The position numbers and the translations under genes are program-made. Below are positions 3,920 to 18,130 of a stretch of 45,127 nucleotides of DNA, piece by piece. The notes under the pieces were generated by a model. The model saw nothing but the letters and a program-made list of their open reading frames with translations. It was not told the origin of the DNA and did no database searches. The DNA is taken from the IMG/VR virus record IMGVR_UViG_2778261231_000002, positions 1-45,127 of that record; one strand, 5' to 3'. The DNA comes from a virus. Taxonomy: Duplodnaviria > Heunggongvirae > Uroviricota > Caudoviricetes. Every line of letters starts with the position of its first letter. Position 1 is the stretch's first letter.

Positions 3920-4137
3920 AGGATGCTCCTTCTGTTTGATTGCATAACGAAAACGCCTCAAGTGAAGCGTTATTGGTATGCATATAAAAAAGCCCTCACA
4001 CTGGAGGGCAAAGAAGATTTCCAATAATCAGAACAAGTCGGCTCCTGTTTAGTTACGAGCGACATTGCTCCGTGTATTCACTCGTTGGAATGAATACACA
4101 GTGCAGTGTTTATTCTGTTGCTTATTCCAAAGCAAAT

Positions 4138-4380
4138 TTAACCATCAACAAACTCTTCTGGTAATTTATCAACCAGTTGATGACTTATTATCAGCCATTT
4201 GCCATCCTTCGTTTCGTATGCATATTTCTGGTCTTTTATCATCATGTGTTCGGCTACTGCCCTAACTGCCTGATCGGTGACATCTTCTCTCTTTCCTACC
4301 CACATTCCTTTTTCAGTGTTTAATGTTCCTTGAAAAATACGACCGCTTAATGGGCTTGCGCCCATAGTTTTTACTCTCAT
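4138..4380 (-). CDS. hypothetical early protein
   Basis: 80-aa ORF in pL operon. Confidence 0.4.
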   Translation of the reverse strand: MRVKTMGASPLSGRIFQGTLNTEKGMWVGKREDVTDQAVRAVAEHMMIKDQKYAYETKDGKWLIISHQLVDKLPEEFVDG

Positions 4381-4444
4381 GTATCAGCTCTCAAATAAGT
4401 GGTTTGCTGCCAAAACAATGAACCATCCGGAAATTCCAGATAGT

Positions 4445-4672
4445 TCATAATTCACTCTTCAATACTTCCAACTTACTAATCGCCGATAGATATCCGCGCT
4501 GATAGGGCATCATGATTCCTTCGAGCTTGCCACTTCTTAACTCCTCCCTGAGCAATTGTATTGCTTGATCAATAACCTCTTCCTTAGCGTCCTTTATGGC
4601 TTGCTTGCGGGGCTTTGCTTTCTGCTTTGGCAGATTTCTCAAGCATGATGGAATGTATGTCTGATTCATCAC
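4445..4672 (-). CDS. hypothetical early protein
   Basis: 75-aa ORF immediately downstream of N-like gene. Confidence 0.4.
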   Translation of the reverse strand: MMNQTYIPSCLRNLPKQKAKPRKQAIKDAKEEVIDQAIQLLREELRSGKLEGIMMPYQRGYLSAISKLEVLKSEL

Positions 4673-5056
4673 TTACCTCGCTGTCAGTTGTTTTGATTTC
4701 CGGTAGCCTGCCGCGTAAATGGCTACGTTTGGAAGACATACACCAGTTTCTGGTTGCTTATGTCCAAACTCATTCGCGTACACAATGGCCGCTCGCTCCA
4801 GATTGCGTCTGTATTCTTTCTGTTGCCAGATCACGTCCTGTGCCATGAACTTAATTGGCTTAGCGTCTTCTATGCGCTCAGGCGTTTCGTGAGTACCTTT
4901 AGCCTGAATCTGCGCTCTGCTTAGAGTAGGGCGGTGTAATACTTCTGAACTTATTGCTTCTTCGCGGGCCAGTACGCCGTTAGCTAATGCCTTTGCCTTT
5001 AAACGCTCACGACGACGAGAACGTGAATTGCCTTTGAACTGAGTTCTGCGTGTCAT
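4673..5056 (-). CDS. N: antitermination protein N-like (P22 gp24-like)
   Basis: Arg-rich N-terminus GNSRSRRRERLKAKA; C-terminus LPNVAIYAAGYRKSKQLTAR resembles P22 gp24; AGGAGG RBS; first gene leftward of OL. Confidence 0.6.
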   Translation of the reverse strand: MTRRTQFKGNSRSRRRERLKAKALANGVLAREEAISSEVLHRPTLSRAQIQAKGTHETPERIEDAKPIKFMAQDVIWQQKEYRRNLERAAIVYANEFGHKQPETGVCLPNVAIYAAGYRKSKQLTAR

Positions 5057-5317
5057 ATAGACCTCCTGATGAACTTTGGTGGTGTGGTGGCTGGTAGTCT
5101 AGCTCCAGCTTGTTGAGTCTCATTCGGAGGGGTATAACCGGCACCCCAGTGATTTTTCCATGCGACAACGTGCGCGTTATGGCGGCCTTATCGCCCGCGG
5201 CTCCCCATCTCGTCCACGCTATTGCTAGCGTTGGGAGCGCTTCACCGCTCAACAGTAGGTAAGCACTTGCCAGTGACTAGCTGGCTTCACCACACCCCAA
5301 AGTTCACTTTGGTTATT

Positions 5318-5332
5318 GCGCTTTGTCAGCGC
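5318..5332 (-). promoter_or_regulatory. nutL boxB hairpin (GCGCTGACAAAGCGC on minus strand)
   Basis: 15-mer matches recalled P22 boxB-left; lies in N leader between OL and N. Confidence 0.55.
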
Positions 5333-5404
5333 CGTAGATTCATATTCGAATCGTTGTATATTCACCGCCCTGGTGAGTAGTGCGTCCTGCTGATGGGCAA
5401 ACTT

Positions 5405-5460
5405 TATCGGAATGATAAATTAATGGCAATAGCAAAATGATAAATTCTTTTGATTTTCAA
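5405..5460. promoter_or_regulatory. OL operator/pL region with repeated ATGATAAAT motif
   Basis: Motif at 5412-5420 and 5437-5445 plus inverted half-site; same motif recurs at OR. Confidence 0.45.
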
Positions 5461-5622
5461 ATATCGTATTGATTCTTATGGTGTTTTATTTTGTTGTAGG
5501 AATTCGACAGGATAAATAAAGAGATTTGAGGGAGATCTGGATTGCGTGGTTTAGCAAGTTGTATCAATCAGTTTTTCAATAAATACAATGAGTTATGTTT
5601 TTTTAGGTGGGGGATCGAGAGG

Positions 5623-5651
5623 CAAAAAAAACCCGGCTCGGTGGCCGGGTT
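5623..5651 (-). terminator. rho-independent terminator after cargo gene
   Basis: 7-bp stem ACCCGGC/GCCGGGT, T-run on minus strand (A7 on plus). Confidence 0.6.
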
Positions 5652-5660
5652 TGGAGTGCA

Positions 5661-6707
5661 TCACTCTGGTTCGCTGGGGAATATATTTATCAATTGCCCT
5701 GTTGAAATGTGCCCATTTTCTACAACCTCTAGGTATGAAATTTCAACAGTTGATTCTTTGGCTACAGCATTCAAAAACTCAAGAAGCTCATCAGTAGATG
5801 TTATGTCGGCTGAGGTTTTTATGGTGAAAGATTCACCATTTGAAACCCTTATGACGTCAATATTTATGTCCTGATTTGTTTCTCCCGAGCGACGAACGCC
5901 CGTGACATAAAAGTTATCTCTTCTAGTTTCCTTTTTTCGATCAATTGATTGTCTTTGGTTTAAGGTATTCAACTGTTCTCTATTTACCACTCTCTGACCA
6001 ATTGTTACCCTCTCAACTGACGAGTCTTGAGCAAGCTTTTTAAGCAACTTGCTTTTACCATCCTCGCCGTGAGCCAGAACCTCTCTGCTAATGTTTGTTT
6101 GACCGCTAATCAACAACTTGAGCACATTGTCTTGTGCTTCGTTTACCGCTTTGGTGCTTTTTTCCACCAATTGCACCTGAGAATCTTGGTCATGTCGCTG
6201 TGTTTCGTAGTACTCACTGATCCACTTATAGCCTACCGTGCTGGCAGCTAAGACGATAGCGGCGACGGCGCATAGTGCTTGCCTTCCTGTCATTTTGCCT
6301 ATCGCTTGAGTAAACACTGTCACCACTCCGTTTACAATCGGATCTGAGTCACCATCCGCTTGGCTTGAGCCTTCGCTTATTCGGTAGACAATATCCAGCA
6401 AACCTTTCTCTGCATCTTTTAGCTTCTGCCGATTATGAGTGCTGTGACTGACTACCGTAAATGCTTTTTGTATTTCATGCGTAAGCTCTGCCATACCAAA
6501 AAGCATTGACGCAGTCAATGAAGAATTATATCTATTTGGATCGCCTTTTACATTAATATTGATCTTTGGCCATCCACTGAAAACTACGTTAGGGAATGTG
6601 AAGTCGCTTGAGTCGATATCCTTCCTTCCGAGCATTTCCGTTACAAAAGATACAAAGTCGTCTTCTGACTTGATAACATATTGCGCAGGTTGATCAATCG
6701 CTGACAT
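5661..6707 (-). CDS. uncharacterized membrane-anchored protein in rexAB-equivalent position
   Basis: 348-aa ORF 76 bp downstream of cI on same strand; hydrophobic segment LCAVAAIVLAASTVGY; AT-rich. Confidence 0.6.
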   Translation of the reverse strand: MSAIDQPAQYVIKSEDDFVSFVTEMLGRKDIDSSDFTFPNVVFSGWPKININVKGDPNRYNSSLTASMLFGMAELTHEIQKAFTVVSHSTHNRQKLKDAEKGLLDIVYRISEGSSQADGDSDPIVNGVVTVFTQAIGKMTGRQALCAVAAIVLAASTVGYKWISEYYETQRHDQDSQVQLVEKSTKAVNEAQDNVLKLLISGQTNISREVLAHGEDGKSKLLKKLAQDSSVERVTIGQRVVNREQLNTLNQRQSIDRKKETRRDNFYVTGVRRSGETNQDINIDVIRVSNGESFTIKTSADITSTDELLEFLNAVAKESTVEISYLEVVENGHISTGQLINIFPSEPE

Positions 6708-6783
6708 TCTTAATCCTTAACATCCATTCCTATCACCCAAACGTCTCTTCAGGCCACTGGCTATCAGCTATGTGACGATGAAG

Positions 6784-7488
6784 TCACGAACTTTTCAGCC
6801 ACTCCCTTGCCTCGATGTCATCCAGATGGCGAGATTGCTTCAGAATACCAGCCACATACTCCACCTTTGCTACTTGATGATAAGGCAACGTTATTGGCCT
6901 GTGGTCTTGGTTGATGCTTGTAAATTGGTATTCTCCATCTCTGTCATAGCCAAGAACCTTAATCATGTTGTGTCCTTCAACGGTTCTGACAAACACCTCA
7001 TCACCCGGGAATACTTTGGTGTTAGGCTCAATGAGTACATATTCTCCTGATTTTATTCTAGGCCACATGCTGTCTCCTTTCACACGAAGGCCAAAGGCAT
7101 CTGGATCATCGCTATAAATTTTGAGCCACCCATCGCGCTCTTCGGTCATCTCGATGGCACCATCAACACCAAGAATTGCCTCACCAACCACGCGCACTAA
7201 CCCTTTTCTTACCTGACCGACAAAAGTTAAAGAATCTGAGCATGATGCAATTGGTGTTACATCATGTACCAAATCAAGCCACCCATTAGGTAACCCAAGT
7301 GCGGCTTCAAATTTTCTTGCTAGTTTATCCCCTATGTTTCGAGTGCTTTTTTCACCGGAGACTTGCGTGAGTTGAGAAGGGCTAACCCCAAGCTTATCGG
7401 CAAAGCTTGCATTAGTGTTACCCGCGATTTTTTTATGCTCATCTAGCAAAAACGCCAGATTCGATTTGCGAATATCTTTGTTTTCCAT
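6784..7488 (-). CDS. cI: CI-type repressor (HTH plus S24 LexA-like peptidase)
   Basis: N-terminal HTH; C-terminal GDSMWP with downstream Lys, typical autocleavage domain. Confidence 0.85.
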   Translation of the reverse strand: MENKDIRKSNLAFLLDEHKKIAGNTNASFADKLGVSPSQLTQVSGEKSTRNIGDKLARKFEAALGLPNGWLDLVHDVTPIASCSDSLTFVGQVRKGLVRVVGEAILGVDGAIEMTEERDGWLKIYSDDPDAFGLRVKGDSMWPRIKSGEYVLIEPNTKVFPGDEVFVRTVEGHNMIKVLGYDRDGEYQFTSINQDHRPITLPYHQVAKVEYVAGILKQSRHLDDIEAREWLKSS

Positions 7489-7499
7489 CTCACAATTCT

Positions 7500-7600
7500 C
7501 CCTCTATTTAGCAAATGGATAAATACGCAATATGATAAATTTACATTGCGGTTGATTTATCAAAATGGTAAAGTTATTCTGTATGATAAACGGAGGCACT
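7500..7600. promoter_or_regulatory. OR operator region (pRM/pR) with ATGATAAAT-type sites
   Basis: Sites at 7516-7524, 7532-7540, 7583-7591 and inverted copy near 7553-7560, between divergent cI and cro. Confidence 0.5.
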
Positions 7601-7601
7601 A

Positions 7602-7835
7602 ATGAGTAATGAACTACTACGCTGGCGAAAAGAGGCTTCTAGTGAGGAATGGAAGCGACTCGCCGCATTAGCGAAAACTTCAGTTGGCTATCTTGACCAG
7701 ATTGCATATGGATTTCGAAGAGCTTCCCCTGATAAAGCGAATGCAATCGAAGAAGCTACTCGTAATTTCACGGCCTATAAACCCGTGAAAAAGGAAAACC
7801 TGGTGTTCGTATCGCGTAGAGCATCAGCAGCATAA
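7602..7835 (+). CDS. cro: Cro-like repressor
   Basis: 77-aa HTH protein divergent from cI; GGAGG RBS. Confidence 0.6.
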   Translation: MSNELLRWRKEASSEEWKRLAALAKTSVGYLDQIAYGFRRASPDKANAIEEATRNFTAYKPVKKENLVFVSRRASAA

Positions 7836-7842
7836 GTAACAC

Positions 7843-7888
7843 CGCTCTTTTCACAATGGACATTCGTCCTACGTCGCTGACAAAGCGA
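7843..7888 (+). promoter_or_regulatory. nutR (boxA CGCTCTTTT and boxB TCGCTGACAAAGCGA)
   Basis: boxA-like 9-mer then hairpin with same loop as nutL boxB, downstream of cro. Confidence 0.5.
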
Positions 7889-7973
7889 GCCCCAAGATAT
7901 CTGACCAACTAAGGTCATATGCGTTTCCACGCATACCTTTCAACTAACTATTCACTATTGGAAATATTAAGAA

Positions 7974-8270
7974 ATGACACAAGCAAGTTACAGCAAGCCA
8001 ACACAGCGAGAAATTGATCGCGCTGAAACTGATTTACTCATCAACCTGTCAACGCTTACCCAGCGCGGTTTGGCAAAGATGATTGGCTGTCATGAATCGA
8101 AGATAAGCAGAACGGACTGGAGGTTTATTGCTTCGGTCTTGTGTGCTTTCGGAATGGCATCAGACATCAGTCCGATTAGCAGGGCTTTTAAGTATGCATT
8201 GGATGGAATCACAAAGAAAAAATCCCCGGCTGCCACCGAGGATTCTGAGCAAATTGATATGCAATTCTGA
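7974..8270 (+). CDS. cII: transcriptional activator CII
   Basis: C-terminus KKKSPAATEDSEQIDMQF parallels lambda CII. Confidence 0.85.
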   Translation: MTQASYSKPTQREIDRAETDLLINLSTLTQRGLAKMIGCHESKISRTDWRFIASVLCAFGMASDISPISRAFKYALDGITKKKSPAATEDSEQIDMQF

Positions 8271-8302
8271 GGGAATTACTGGATCAATCCACAGGAGTAA
8301 TT

Positions 8303-8947
8303 ATGACATACGAAAATGACAAATTCCAGGTTCTGAAGAGCATGAAGGTGCCAGATGATTTTAAATCAAATGGCTTTGTTTATGTGCTTTCTAATGAGTG
8401 CATGCCAGGAATTTATAAGATTGGGATGACTAAGCATTCACCAGAAGTTAGGGCTAAAGAAATTTCAGCCTCTACTGGCGTTCCTAAGCCATTTAAGGTG
8501 ATAGCAGCCTTTCATTCAAATAATCCCGCATCAGATGAAAAACTCATTCATAAAGCCTTTGCAAAAGAGAGGCTTAGTGATAATCGAGAGTTTTTCAAGC
8601 TTGAAGATAATGAGCTTTCTGAATCTCTAAATGAAATAAGGGCGCTGGTTGGCCCTGAAAGAAATGGCGAGACGGCAGAATACGCAATTTACGACTCATT
8701 CATTTCTTTTCGCCATGAAAATGAGCTTGATCTTAATGAGGAGCTTATAGAGCAAGGTCTGGGTAGTGTAGTTGGTCATCTTCCTGCGGTGAAAAATTTC
8801 CTTATTCGCGCCGGAATTGATTACGCGAAGCAACTGATAAGCAAATATAACTCATCGATAGTTATTAATACAGATGGCAGTGTGGTGATGGTTAAGTCTC
8901 TTGAAGCCCAATGCTTTGATGCGGAGGTTGGAAATGAGCCTGGCTGA
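8303..8947 (+). CDS. T5orf172/GIY-YIG-like domain protein
   Basis: GFVYVLSNECMPGIYKIGMT...RAKEIS motif; AT-rich; inserted between cII and O. Confidence 0.55.
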   Translation: MTYENDKFQVLKSMKVPDDFKSNGFVYVLSNECMPGIYKIGMTKHSPEVRAKEISASTGVPKPFKVIAAFHSNNPASDEKLIHKAFAKERLSDNREFFKLEDNELSESLNEIRALVGPERNGETAEYAIYDSFISFRHENELDLNEELIEQGLGSVVGHLPAVKNFLIRAGIDYAKQLISKYNSSIVINTDGSVVMVKSLEAQCFDAEVGNEPG

Positions 8948-9776
8948 AGTATTTTACCTGTCGAAGAGTGAACCTGTTGAACAGGAGCGAAGAGTGGCTG
9001 ATATCGATGATGGTTACACCAGATTCGCTAACGAGCTGCTGGAAGCTATCGCAAGTGCTGATTTAACCGCTCGCCAGTTGAAAGTTATGCTGGCCTACGT
9101 CCGGAAAACATATGGATTCAATAAGAAAACAGATCGAATAGCCGATGAGCAAATTGCTCAGTTAACAGGACTGTCAAGGCAGAATGTTAACAAGGCTAAA
9201 AAAGAACTGATTTCAATGAATTGCCTGTTTATGGATGGAAATCAAATCGGTGTAAACAGTGAGGTATCTGCGTGGCAATTCAGCAAGTGTCTCCAAGTTA
9301 GCAACTTTGTCTCGAAGTTAGAGACAAAAAATGTCTCCAAATTAGAGACACTCAATGTCTCGAAGTTAGAGACACACAAAAGACATTCTTTAAAGACAAA
9401 AGAAAATATTAATAAACCCCCTATATCCCCCAAAAAAGTTTCTCAGAAGTTCGACCCGCTAGAAACAGAGTTGCCTGATTGGTTATCAGCAGAAACATGG
9501 TTGTCGTTGGTTACCTATCGCAAGGAGATAGGTAAGTCGATCAAGTCTAAGCAAAGTGTCACTCAGGCTATCAACGTTCTAAGCAGAAGTCTGGAGAAGG
9601 GATATACACCTGAAGAAATTATAAACCAGAGCATCGCCAGTGGTTGGCAGGGGATTTTTGAACCCAAGACTCCAAAGGGGAAATCTCAACCGAGGCCGCA
9701 GCAGCGAGCTATGCAGGAAAACTTTGCCGCCAAAGATTACGGGCAAACTGAAATGCCTTCATGGGCGCAGGAGTGA
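8934..9776 (+). CDS. O: replication initiation protein O-like
   Basis: GGAGG RBS before ATG 8934; iterons inside gene; precedes helicase loader. Confidence 0.75.
   Translation: MSLAEVFYLSKSEPVEQERRVADIDDGYTRFANELLEAIASADLTARQLKVMLAYVRKTYGFNKKTDRIADEQIAQLTGLSRQNVNKAKKELISMNCLFMDGNQIGVNSEVSAWQFSKCLQVSNFVSKLETKNVSKLETLNVSKLETHKRHSLKTKENINKPPISPKKVSQKFDPLETELPDWLSAETWLSLVTYRKEIGKSIKSKQSVTQAINVLSRSLEKGYTPEEIINQSIASGWQGIFEPKTPKGKSQPRPQQRAMQENFAAKDYGQTEMPSWAQE
9287..9420. repeat. origin of replication: four ~19-bp iterons plus AT-rich tract
   Basis: TGTCTCGAAGTTAGAGACA at 9308 and 9356, TGTCTCCAAATTAGAGACA at 9332, degenerate copy at 9287; AT-rich 9375-9420. Confidence 0.7.
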
Positions 9777-15987: not shown

Positions 15988-16008
15988 TTTTTTTGCAAAT
16001 CACAAAGT

Positions 16009-16030
16009 CAATTTAATGAGCCTCGCGATG
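16009..16030 (+). terminator. rho-independent terminator after lysis cassette
   Basis: Stem GCCTCGC/GCGGGGC then TTTTT. Confidence 0.55.
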
Positions 16031-16037
16031 CGGGGCT

Positions 16038-16062
16038 TTTTGCAATAAATGCGTACCGCAAC
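16038..16062 (+). terminator. second tandem terminator
   Basis: Stem ATGCGT/ACGCAT then GTTTTTT. Confidence 0.55.
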
Positions 16063-16188
16063 GCATGTTTTTTACACCGAACCTGCCCCTTTGGAATGGG
16101 CCTTTGAGGATACCAGTTAGTGCTGGCGAGCCTCGGTGGGCTGGTTTCCTGTGCGGCAAAGGTTCATTTCAAAGAGTAGGTACACGCT

Positions 16189-16686
16189 ATGAAATCATTA
16201 ACCCTCTTCAATCAACCAATTCGTATCGGTGAAGATGGCATGATCTGCCTCACTGATATGTGGAAAGCCAGTGGTAAAAGTGAATCTGAATCGCCTTACC
16301 ACTACCTGCGAAACAAGCAGACCAAAGAGTTCTTAGCCGAGCTGGAGAAAAACCACGAATCTGTGGTTTTTACTGAGCGCGGTGTACACGGTGGAACATA
16401 TGGCGGGAAGTTTGTTGCTTACGATTATGCGGCTTGGTTAAACCCCGGGTTCAAGTACGCGGCCTATAAAGTCCTCGATGACTACTTCACCGGAGAACTT
16501 CAGCATCGCAACAGCTTAAGTGCGCAGCTCAACATGAAATGTCATGAGTTTGACCAGAAGAAAGACATGGCGAGTTTCTGCGGACAAGGGCTGGCGGCAT
16601 GGCGCTATACGAAGCCAGTGTTGGTCGCTGAGATTAACTCCCTGGCTAACCAGCTGCAGATTACGATCCCCGGGCTTCCGGGATGA
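16189..16686 (+). CDS. KilA-N domain protein
   Basis: N-terminal pattern resembles KilA-N DNA-binding domain. Confidence 0.5.
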   Translation: MKSLTLFNQPIRIGEDGMICLTDMWKASGKSESESPYHYLRNKQTKEFLAELEKNHESVVFTERGVHGGTYGGKFVAYDYAAWLNPGFKYAAYKVLDDYFTGELQHRNSLSAQLNMKCHEFDQKKDMASFCGQGLAAWRYTKPVLVAEINSLANQLQITIPGLPG

Positions 16687-16946
16687 GTGATCGTGTCATT
16701 GAATGCGCCTCCAGAGCGGGGCGCGACTTCTCAGAGTTCATGAAAGGCGAGAAGGGCATGATGGAAGCATTGGCCTCGGTGGATGAGTTTGGCGAGCAGC
16801 TGCGCCTCAACGGCTGTGTCAATCATCACTTTGTTAGCTACATGATGCGGAACTCGATCATGCAGGCATTCATGGACATGGCAAAAGCCGAGAGGAAAGA
16901 AGAGCGCCGACGTCAGCGAGCGGAAGCAAAAGCAAAAGCGAAGTAG
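16683..16946 (+). CDS. hypothetical protein
   Basis: 87-aa ORF, Lys/Arg/Glu-rich C-terminus. Confidence 0.4.
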   Translation: MSDRVIECASRAGRDFSEFMKGEKGMMEALASVDEFGEQLRLNGCVNHHFVSYMMRNSIMQAFMDMAKAERKEERRRQRAEAKAKAK

Positions 16947-17004
16947 CCATCACAAAAGCCATTCCTTACTGAGTGGCTTCGATAATGGAGCACTGGGATT
17001 ATTC

Positions 17005-17625
17005 ATGAACAGACCACACCCACCAGCGCATTTTACGATGCCACCTGACCCGAAGCCTTACATCAGCATAATGCCCGCTAATGACGTTGGCGAGTGGCTG
17101 AATCAGCACATCCTGAGCGATGAGGGTGACCTCTACAACCATGACCACCAGCATTTGCTTGAAGCGGATCTGTGCTTTCTCTGGGCATCGAACGCTTTCG
17201 AGAAGAAAGGGCGTTCCGTGCTGGGGCAGGCGGAAGAAGTGGCAATGCGGGCCGGAGGCTGGCAGAAAGCGCGGATGGAGCAGCAGATGTATGAATGGTT
17301 CGGCAGGGTGCCGCAGTTCATCATCACGCTGGCCGCCGATTACTGCTCGCAATGTTCCGATCTGGAATTCTGCGCGCTGATAGAGCACGAGCTTTATCAC
17401 ATCTGCCAAGCGACAGATGAATTTGGTGCGCCGAAGTTCACGCAGGAAGGGCAGCCAAAGCTGAAGCTGCGCGGCCATGACGTGGAAGAGTTTGTGGGCG
17501 TGGTTCGCCGTTACGGTGCGAGCCGGGACGTGCAGGAAATGATTGATGCGGCGAATCAGCCAGCGGAGGTTGCTCATCTCGATATTGCCAGAGCGTGCGG
17601 GACGTGCATGCTGCGACTGGCTTAA
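17005..17625 (+). CDS. putative phage metallopeptidase (HExxH)
   Basis: IEHELYHI motif; upstream of terminase. Confidence 0.5.
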   Translation: MNRPHPPAHFTMPPDPKPYISIMPANDVGEWLNQHILSDEGDLYNHDHQHLLEADLCFLWASNAFEKKGRSVLGQAEEVAMRAGGWQKARMEQQMYEWFGRVPQFIITLAADYCSQCSDLEFCALIEHELYHICQATDEFGAPKFTQEGQPKLKLRGHDVEEFVGVVRRYGASRDVQEMIDAANQPAEVAHLDIARACGTCMLRLA

Positions 17626-17656
17626 ATACTGGACTGTATAAGACGAATGGTGATTT

Positions 17657-18130
17657 ATGGCTGCATTAAAACCTGATGTGAAAGCCTTCATCATTCAGTC
17701 GCTTGCGTGCTATGACACGCCATCGCAGGTGGTCGAGGCTGTCCAAAAAGAATTCGGGATCAAGATCACCCGCCAGCAGGCTGAATCTCACGACCCCACG
17801 AAGGCCAGCGGTAAGACGCTCGCCAAAAAGTGGATCGAGATGTTCCACGCGACGCGCGAACGGTTCCTGACCGAAACCAGCGACATTCCGATAGCGAACA
17901 AATCCTATCGCCTCCGCGTGCTTGACCGCATGGCAACCAAAACCGAGGGGATGAAAAACTTCTCCCTGACGGCGCAGCTTATCGAACAGGCCGCGAAAGA
18001 GGTTGGCGACGCTTACACCAATAAGCTGAAGGTTGAGAGCACTGGCAAGGATGGCGGCCCGATCAAGACCGAGACGACCAACCTCACCGCAGATCAGGCC
18101 GCAGAGATTTACCGCAAGATGATGGGGTGA
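17657..18130 (+). CDS. putative terminase small subunit
   Basis: 157-aa ORF immediately upstream of and overlapping terL start. Confidence 0.5.

Follow-up and report, generated by a model that had tools for sequence, protein, structure and literature searches.

A candidate exclusion gene with a predicted membrane anchor in the repressor-operon slot of a lambdoid prophage

The repressor-operon slot of lambdoid phages has already given RexAB and HigBAC, and here we describe another tenant of it, an open reading frame (ORF) of 348 amino acids (aa) in the Caudoviricetes record IMGVR_UViG_2778261231_000002 of IMG/VR, which was analysed over its full 45,127 nucleotides (the window). A preprint names this slot the 'variable defence locus downstream of cI'. 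The gene is a strong candidate for a new exclusion or defence gene, and such candidates are not rare. We tentatively favour, at a probability of roughly 0.4, a lysogen-expressed inner-membrane exclusion protein that would block the genome entry of incoming phages; it is the position of the gene and the architecture of its product that point to a function in exclusion or abortive infection.

In lambda, where the order is cI, rexA, rexB, OL, N, the rexAB genes lie downstream of cI on the same strand and end ahead of OL, PL and N, as does the gene described here; in both cases the slot ends in a Timm-type terminator, as annotated in mEp332, and includes a membrane component, a predicted one in the window. 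The window has one gene where lambda has two, with no RexA-like DNA-binding partner, and RexAB pairs a soluble sensor with a polytopic membrane protein, RexB, whereas the 348-aa protein has a single hydrophobic helix. RexAB excludes T4 rII and other phages by depolarising the membrane. Homology to either protein was rejected by hhalign, with probabilities of 0.11% for RexA and 0.14% for RexB.

P22 SieA offers a parallel, in that one membrane protein expressed from a prophage is proposed to interfere with the entry of DNA; according to PMC10461980, SieA is sufficient alone, resides in the inner membrane and is escaped via changes in periplasmic or membrane ejection proteins. SieA-type proteins lie at a different locus and show no homology to the 348-aa protein, for which a PHROG scan gave phrog_6191 only, and the latter is much larger, with a conserved 140-aa domain predicted to be cytoplasmic and an OB-fold. 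HK97 gp15, T4 Imm, lactococcal Sie2009 and TP-J34 Ltp are further inner-membrane superinfection-exclusion proteins.

HigBAC and HicABC occupy the same slot, between the same linkers, in phages with the same cI, but comprise three cytoplasmic proteins including a toxin, in contrast to one predicted membrane protein without a toxin signature. Zorya (ZorAB) and Kiwa (KwaA), which sense phage entry at the envelope and act inside the cell, are relevant to a sensor-effector reading only; unlike the present locus they are multi-gene and polytopic, and we found no homology to them. ZorA gave noise-level matches in 2 of 52 diverse family members (best E 0.0048), which probably stem from the shared hydrophobic composition of the membrane helix.

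The exchangeable slot behind cI

The order of elements in the window is cI, the 348-aa ORF, a terminator, OL1-3, boxB and N, with the following features:

5661-6707, minus strand: the 348-aa ORF, a phrog_6191 member with an ATG start (from the ORF list)
6714-6718, minus strand: its Shine-Dalgarno sequence AAGGA, read from the sequence, 6 nt before the ATG
6708-6783, minus strand: the 76-bp spacer between cI and the ORF, without a terminator- or promoter-like site
6784-7488, minus strand: cI repressor of the H-19B/Stx-phage immunity type, the upstream gene of the operon (Peptidase_S24, E 3.8e-16; phrog_4, 'transcriptional repressor')
5657-6726: variable cargo, made up of the ORF and its ribosome-binding site, one ORF only (blastn junctions)
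5621-5656, minus strand: intrinsic terminator forming the left linker of the slot (Timm equivalent), stem-loop at 5652-5629 (terminator scan)
6727-6762, minus strand: right linker of the slot, common to phages with the same cI and other cargo and to phages with another cI and the same gene
5403-5419, 5428-5444 and 5460-5476, unstranded: OL1, OL2 and OL3, exact matches to operators annotated in ST2-8624 (GQ499358, H-19B immunity)
5429-5401, minus strand: PL-like promoter, a promoter-like site in the scan
5318-5332, minus strand: boxB-like hairpin GCGCTGACAAAGCGC (nutL), unique in the window with 0 expected by chance
4673-5056, minus strand: antiterminator N (Pfam N_peptide, E 2.1e-15; phrog_271)
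7507-7572, unstranded: OR3-OR1 operators (PRM/PR region), exact matches to OR1-3 annotated in GQ499358

An initial annotation, made from the sequence alone, had placed the ORF 76 bp downstream of cI on the same strand, between cI and the OL/nutL/N region, in the position that lambda uses for rexAB. The spacing is exactly 76 bp, OL1-3, the boxB-like hairpin and N were all located beyond the ORF, and the order agrees with that of lambda. In mEp332, a wild phage of lambda immunity in which the lambda operators, PRM and Timm are annotated, the gene between cI and Timm, mEp33204, encodes a full-length family member (hhalign probability 100%, E 1.7e-41) that stands in place of rexAB; the mEp332 entry EF120456 in GenBank already lists this slot occupant, under the name 'conserved hypothetical protein'. 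The same arrangement occurs in the PhiR12 phages, and the PhiR12_2 protein also matches at an hhalign probability of 100%.

To set the junctions of the slot, the window was aligned by blastn with sibling phages, and megablast boundaries in 18 complete E. coli genomes agree with the result. The cI gene, whose 234-aa product shows a weak HTH_3 match under the Pfam cut-off, is 97-99% identical in DNA to those of H-19B, BP-4795 and mEp506. The same-cI phages mEp506, BP-4795 and AU5Stx1 align up to 5650-5656 on the OL side and again from 6727-6737 on the cI side, while phages with another cI and the same gene (phi458 and the IMG/VR prophages L017 and L019) align from 5613-5624 up to 6759-6762. What lies between is exchanged, in line with the suggestion that this is a cargo hotspot: mEp506 carries HicA, HicB and HicC, BP-4795, H-19B and many Stx phages carry HigB (HigB_toxin, E 4.5e-30), a helix-turn-helix (HTH) protein and a third gene, and AU5Stx1 has almost nothing there. 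The stretches 5621-5656 and 6727-6762 resemble recombination linkers that allow cassette swaps in the repressor operon and, lying on both sides of the cargo, they offer a concrete picture of such swaps between phages of different immunity.

The ORF had also been credited with a terminator of its own. A strong terminator does follow the stop codon directly, beginning 9 nt past it, with a 9-bp GC-rich stem, a U8 tract and a fold z-score of -3.07 against shuffled sequence, but it belongs to the slot and not to the gene because siblings with other cargo share it. In the 76-bp spacer, the terminator and promoter scan found no site, no stem with a U-tract was present and the fold z-score was not significant (-1.15), implying that the ORF would be co-transcribed with cI from the OR/PRM region, the presumed source of the lysogenic transcript. 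Morons are recognised by their own promoter and their own terminator; with no promoter-like site in the spacer and a terminator common to siblings, the gene appears from its sequence context to travel with the repressor operon and not to be a moron in the classical sense. As for base composition, the gene was described as AT-rich relative to the structural genes, and at 42.2% guanine plus cytosine (GC) against ~54% it is; its local neighbours are equally so (cI 44.7%, early region 45.9%), and the ORF is not compositionally distinct from them.

Relatives of the gene were located at 36 IMG/VR loci. At 15 of these a cI-type repressor gene of the same strand lies immediately upstream, with at least seven repressor types represented; at 4 the relative lies at a prophage edge beside int/xis, and at about 12 at the opposite edge, beside tail-fibre, DinI or invertase genes. 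Bacterial genomes show comparable settings, with the order icd, gene, int in Lelliottia and Serratia, a place at the tail-fibre end in Enterobacter and Xenorhabdus, and the order cI, gene, N in Pantoea. More distant members (~25% identity) include one in the repressor operon of a P2-like phage, another beside P2 gpD/gpU, one beside a satellite-like element that encodes a capsid, a primase and a RES-Xre toxin-antitoxin pair, and one 3 kb from AbiEi/AbiEii in Pseudoalteromonas. The places occupied are classic prophage and satellite sites for lysogen-expressed accessory and defence genes.

No partner gene was conserved across the examined loci. In some lineages a small ORF of 62, 114 or 194 aa directly follows the family member (L058 1781-2365, L059 1483-2067, L023 6217-6405, L024 2415-2603 and L036-L039 2353-2697), its start overlapping the stop codon of the family gene in L058, L059, L023 and L024; this hints at lineage-specific partner genes. 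The window has no such ORF.

These locations bear on one alternative, namely that the protein regulates the cycle of its own prophage, acting on induction, the lysis-lysogeny switch or lysis timing. A place in the repressor operon would suit such a role, as would the published functions of RexA beyond exclusion (PMC11077077; PMC12315714); RexA (with a bias toward the lytic state) and RexB are reported to modulate the phage life cycle. However, the gene cannot depend on one switch because it occurs behind at least seven unrelated repressor types and, elsewhere, far from any repressor, at int and tail-fibre ends and in non-phage islands. The hhalign comparison shows no relation to RexA or RexB, the protein carries no DNA-binding signature and its OB-fold is acidic, so that we consider a regulatory role very improbable.

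A widespread family and its predicted architecture

The exact 348-aa protein is encoded on 50 public E. coli contigs, and a near-identical variant, labelled 'MULTISPECIES: hypothetical protein [Enterobacteriaceae]', on at least 1000; the protein is also 99.7% identical to Orf11 of phi458, annotated 'hypothetical protein'. The ratio of nonsynonymous to synonymous substitution rates (dN/dS), computed pairwise and taken where dS is unsaturated, was 0.05 for the N-terminal half against a homologue of 86% protein identity and 0.09 for the C-terminal half against a homologue of 66% identity, values (~0.05-0.09) that mark the ORF as a real gene under purifying selection. Many GenBank entries (P0005, P0006, P0208, P0213-P0215, P0218) begin at Met68 and give a product of 281 aa. 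Since the first 67 residues hold the best-conserved positions of the family (F43, W46, P47 and G55), the 348-aa start is taken as correct, and the Met68 start in public entries would, judging by this conservation, be a systematic start-codon mis-annotation.

The initial annotation recognised no family, and our searches likewise led to PHROG 6191 alone, a group of 'unknown function' matched at E 7.6e-36 across residues 7-342 of 348. Pfam, NCBIfam and PADLOC gave nothing significant for the protein, the 5027 defence-protein models of PADLOC-DB v2 produced 0 matches at E <= 1, and the 52 diverse members showed no Pfam domain (E <= 0.01) and only scattered PADLOC noise. An exhaustive profile search of 1.84 billion cluster representatives returned 944 family clusters at 50% identity with E <= 1e-3, nearly all of them 300-400 aa long, and 593 with E <= 1e-10. 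In the database entries of the cluster and contig listings, all source names seen for members were 'hypothetical protein'. Profile-based word-index searches with diverse alignments added almost no further named distant relatives, and sequence and profile searches of the PDB yielded only compositional matches to membrane anchors of bitopic proteins. No study of the protein was found in the literature on phi458, the mEp phages, PhiR12, phrog_6191, rexAB hotspots or exclusion membrane proteins. The family has thus never been characterised and is without a name, a Pfam model, a solved structure or an entry in the defence catalogue searched.

Structure prediction, proposed in the initial annotation as a check, assigned a fold to the C-terminal domain and led to no named sequence family. 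A first AlphaFold run with 23 close homologues reached a predicted local distance difference test score (pLDDT) of 61; the model used here, built with 52 diverse sequences, has a pLDDT of 84.5 and a predicted template modelling score (pTM) of 0.73. It divides the protein as follows:

aa 1-138 (6294-6707, minus strand): N-terminal alpha/beta domain, pLDDT ~86-92 for most of it, predicted cytoplasmic
aa 143-163 (6219-6281, minus strand): single hydrophobic helix QALCAVAAIVLAASTVGYKWI, predicted transmembrane anchor
aa 164-229 (6021-6218, minus strand): helical linker, with AlphaFold helices at 159-171, 178-201 and 205-226
aa 230-256: beta-hairpin and short helix (AlphaFold model)
aa 257-343 (5679-5939, minus strand): C-terminal OB-fold domain, predicted periplasmic

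The helix is the sole hydrophobic segment of the protein, with a Kyte-Doolittle 19-residue score of 1.72 at residues 145-163, which agrees with the earlier description of a membrane-anchored protein with one hydrophobic helix. Its Eisenberg values across 199 family members (mean hydrophobicity 0.73, moment 0.11) are in the range of transmembrane helices, the uncharged run around it spans 17-32 residues in every member (median 19), and its position is kept at about residues 130-150, although its sequence is not. None of the 199 members shows a second hydrophobic segment or an N-terminal signal peptide, and a folded N-terminal domain of 140 aa that lacks a signal sequence would be expected to remain in the cytoplasm. 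The cysteine content drops 2.8-fold from the part before the helix (0.47%) to the part after it (0.17%), where 108 of 139 members have no cysteine at all, a depletion that fits periplasmic exposure. All of the weak sequence matches in the PDB fall on anchor segments of bitopic proteins with an N-in/C-out (type II) topology (MotB, PBP5, the peptidoglycan deacetylase PgdA and Tom20), which is compositional support for a membrane anchor and not homology. From these features we infer a single-pass inner-membrane protein, predicted to be N-in/C-out with ~185 aa in the periplasm.

An alternative arrangement, in which the helix is buried or the C-terminal part is cytoplasmic, would make this a soluble or peripheral defence protein whose OB-fold binds phage nucleic acid or protein inside the cell. 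Many of the OB-fold matches, to SSB, PriB, RPA and RecO, would accord with this, as would the pTM of 0.73, which suggests that the domains are placed relative to each other with some confidence, and the charges flanking the helix do not decide the topology. On the other hand, the helix is hydrophobic on all faces (moment 0.11) and every member keeps a stretch of 17-32 uncharged residues around it, cysteine depletion after it fits the periplasm, and the OB-fold domain is acidic (isoelectric point (pI) 4.9; family median 5.6), unlike binders of single-stranded DNA (ssDNA), which in the SSB/PriB type have a basic, aromatic binding face. We therefore rate a cytoplasmic C-terminal part as very unlikely indeed.

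The C-terminal part had been described as a charged domain, which the analysis did not bear out: its net charge is only -1 to -4, and it consists instead of a helical linker and an OB-fold. The linker is the least conserved part of the protein (mean column identity 0.25), with a pLDDT of 49-58 for residues 161-190. In the AlphaFold model the domain that follows is a five-stranded barrel with a helix between strands 3 and 4, the classical OB-fold topology, and its top fold matches are SilF/CusF, YgiW and the AB5 B subunits, all periplasmic or secreted OB-folds. Met and Trp are missing from residues 257-343, which have a single His, and Met plus His make up 2.4% across the family; an acidic OB-fold of this composition has no CusF/SilF metal site and is not like a typical ssDNA binder. 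The likeness to CusF/SilF and the AB5 B subunits is confined to the fold, as sequence identity is 13-15% and the OB-fold here would be membrane-tethered. CusF-like metal binding was rejected by residue content, the Met/His/Trp site being missing.

These fold matches also raise the possibility of a lysogenic-conversion factor acting in host envelope physiology, for instance in stress tolerance, periplasmic ligand or metal binding, interference with secretion or pili, or colonisation fitness. Slots beside int and tail fibres also hold virulence and fitness genes. The layout of the protein resembles that of GspM, PilO and PilN, assembly proteins of type II secretion and type IV pili that begin in the cytoplasm, cross the membrane once and continue in the periplasm with helices and a compact C-terminal domain, although the N-terminal domain of the 348-aa family is large and conserved. 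Depositors named the PhiR12_2 (L002 3983-5008) and mEp332 (L003 3887-4924, PV340541) members 'T2SS GspM containing protein'. Such an assignment is not borne out by the Pfam model T2SSM (PF04612), which scored 12.8 bits on the 348-aa protein against a cut-off of 27.8 (E 0.14) and matched neither the PhiR12_2 and mEp332 proteins (E <= 0.1) nor the 52 members (E <= 0.01), and the C-terminal domain is an OB-fold, whereas the periplasmic domain of GspM is ferredoxin-like. The 'GspM' name is likely to be propagated as a misannotation. With the Met/His metal site missing, and with numerous hosts and types of phage carrying the family, an argument against a factor for a host-specific niche, we judge a conversion role quite unlikely.

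The N-terminal domain of ~140 aa gave no structural relative in the fold searches, which did not extend to the AlphaFold database or BFVD. Its strongly conserved columns are glycines, aromatics and hydrophobics, and the alignment of the 52 members contains no invariant acidic, basic or His residue; with no invariant polar position, the domain looks like a structural or interaction module and not an enzyme. The only well-conserved polar residue, S114 (nt 6366-6368), adjoins the invariant G113; 46 of the 52 members (88%) have Ser at this position and 6 have Cys. Positions that alternate between Ser and Cys can be nucleophiles, but there is no conserved His, Asp or Lys partner.

The two sides of the helix diverge at different rates. 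Among 139 representatives, 98% of pairs are detectable by BLAST through the N-domain and 37% through the part after the helix, with 0.61 and 0.32 bits per residue, respectively, so that the post-helix part diverges about twice as fast; the window protein detects 128 partners through its N-domain and 16 through its C-terminal part. In five mid-distance pairs the post-helix dN was 1.3-1.5 times that of the N-domain, while in other pairs the two were equal.

Possible roles in entry block, abortive infection or immune sensing

The entry-block reading, which we favour tentatively, treats the gene as cargo that lambdoid prophages can exchange within their repressor operon. PRM would drive its transcription in the lysogen, and PRE while lysogeny is being established, with the cI-gene transcript stopping at the Timm-like terminator. 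The conserved 140-aa N-domain would lie in the cytoplasm, and the helical linker and the acidic OB-fold in the periplasm. There the faster-evolving OB-fold may engage parts of an incoming phage, be they ejection or tail-tip proteins or the DNA conduit, and the outcome would be blocked genome entry, that is, superinfection exclusion. The cytoplasmic N-domain might anchor or oligomerise the protein, or couple it to a host inner-membrane component. We favour this reading because the variable part would face the compartment in which only entering phages expose parts, and because the cassette shows neither a toxin or enzyme signature nor an antidote gene and must be harmless when constitutive. The window cassette also lacks a partner or antitoxin gene, as would suit a protein that does no harm when made all the time.

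Several points weigh against an entry block. As no PADLOC model matches, there is no tie to a validated defence family, and a search for experimental or transcriptomic evidence of expression or protection found none. Pairwise dN/dS indicates purifying and not positive selection, with dS saturated, and the faster evolution of the extracytoplasmic part can be mere relaxed constraint. The helix-flank charges are not decisive on topology. Most known superinfection-exclusion membrane proteins are small and have no sizeable conserved domain in the cytoplasm; in the 348-aa protein the domain predicted to lie there is the best-conserved part, which suits an abortive sensor-effector design at least equally. 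Finally, members occur in non-prophage islands and satellites, a distribution more typical of general defence than of the exclusion of a phage's own relatives.

The main rival, which we regard as unlikely, is abortive infection by a one-protein transmembrane sensor-effector. The OB-fold would sense envelope events, and the N-domain and helix would oligomerise or collapse membrane integrity or another essential function, so that the cell dies or arrests without phage release, a RexAB-like outcome from unrelated parts. A conserved cytoplasmic domain joined to a variable extracytoplasmic one is the pattern of sensor-effector immune proteins, the slot is common to the RexAB and HigBAC/HicABC abortive systems, and some members lie near AbiE or in satellite-like elements, settings that are not typical of exclusion genes; oligomers would be compatible with the many OB-fold matches to AB5 toxin B subunits, which form rings. 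However, the protein has no toxin, nuclease, pore-forming or enzymatic signature, no invariant polar residues, one hydrophobic helix only and no PADLOC match, and a constitutive lethal effector without a regulator in its cassette would require tight autoinhibition, which is unsupported.

A related proposal, which we think rather unlikely, is a single-chain outside-in immune receptor, whose periplasmic OB-fold, possibly as an AB5-like ring, would detect the phage ejection apparatus or DNA, with the helix signalling to an N-domain of novel fold that would block or abort the infection. If this were true, the lambdoid, P2-like and satellite-like occurrence of the family would make it a widespread and previously unseen class of defence.

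Should the protein be protective, whether by blocking entry or otherwise, it would represent a single-gene membrane-anchored exclusion or defence family missed by current defence finders, would help to account for the resistance that prophages confer on E. coli, Salmonella, Enterobacter, Serratia and other hosts, and would provide a tractable model for the recognition of periplasmic events during DNA entry. If it is not protective, it would still be a very common lysogen-expressed membrane protein with a possible role in host physiology.

Neighbouring features of the window

An Rfam scan of window positions 4000-9000 found no RNA family. The boxB-like hairpin GCGCTGACAAAGCGC is one that we take to be identical to the boxB-left sequence of P22. 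At ~16000-18000 the early and regulatory half of the window, with a GC content of ~42-50%, gives way to the structural half with ~55%, and the best DNA matches change from BASEL/mEp-type phages on the left to Citrobacter phage Omnitron and Salmonella phage SEN34 on the right, which together indicate a mosaic joint.

Between cII and an O-like replication gene lies a gene for a 214-aa T5orf172/MUG113 (GIY-YIG-like) protein (8303-8947, plus strand), which matches the PADLOC candidate PDC-S57 (E 4.5e-29) and the C-terminal part of PD-Lambda-1. The early-right operon may thereby hold a further accessory or defence gene; alternatively, the gene may be an insertion of the homing-endonuclease type. 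In the O-like replication protein itself (8901-9776, plus strand) the peptide VSKLET is repeated three times (NFVSKLETKNVSKLETLNVSKLETH), repeats that probably reflect iterons of the replication origin (ori) within the coding sequence, as in lambda O.

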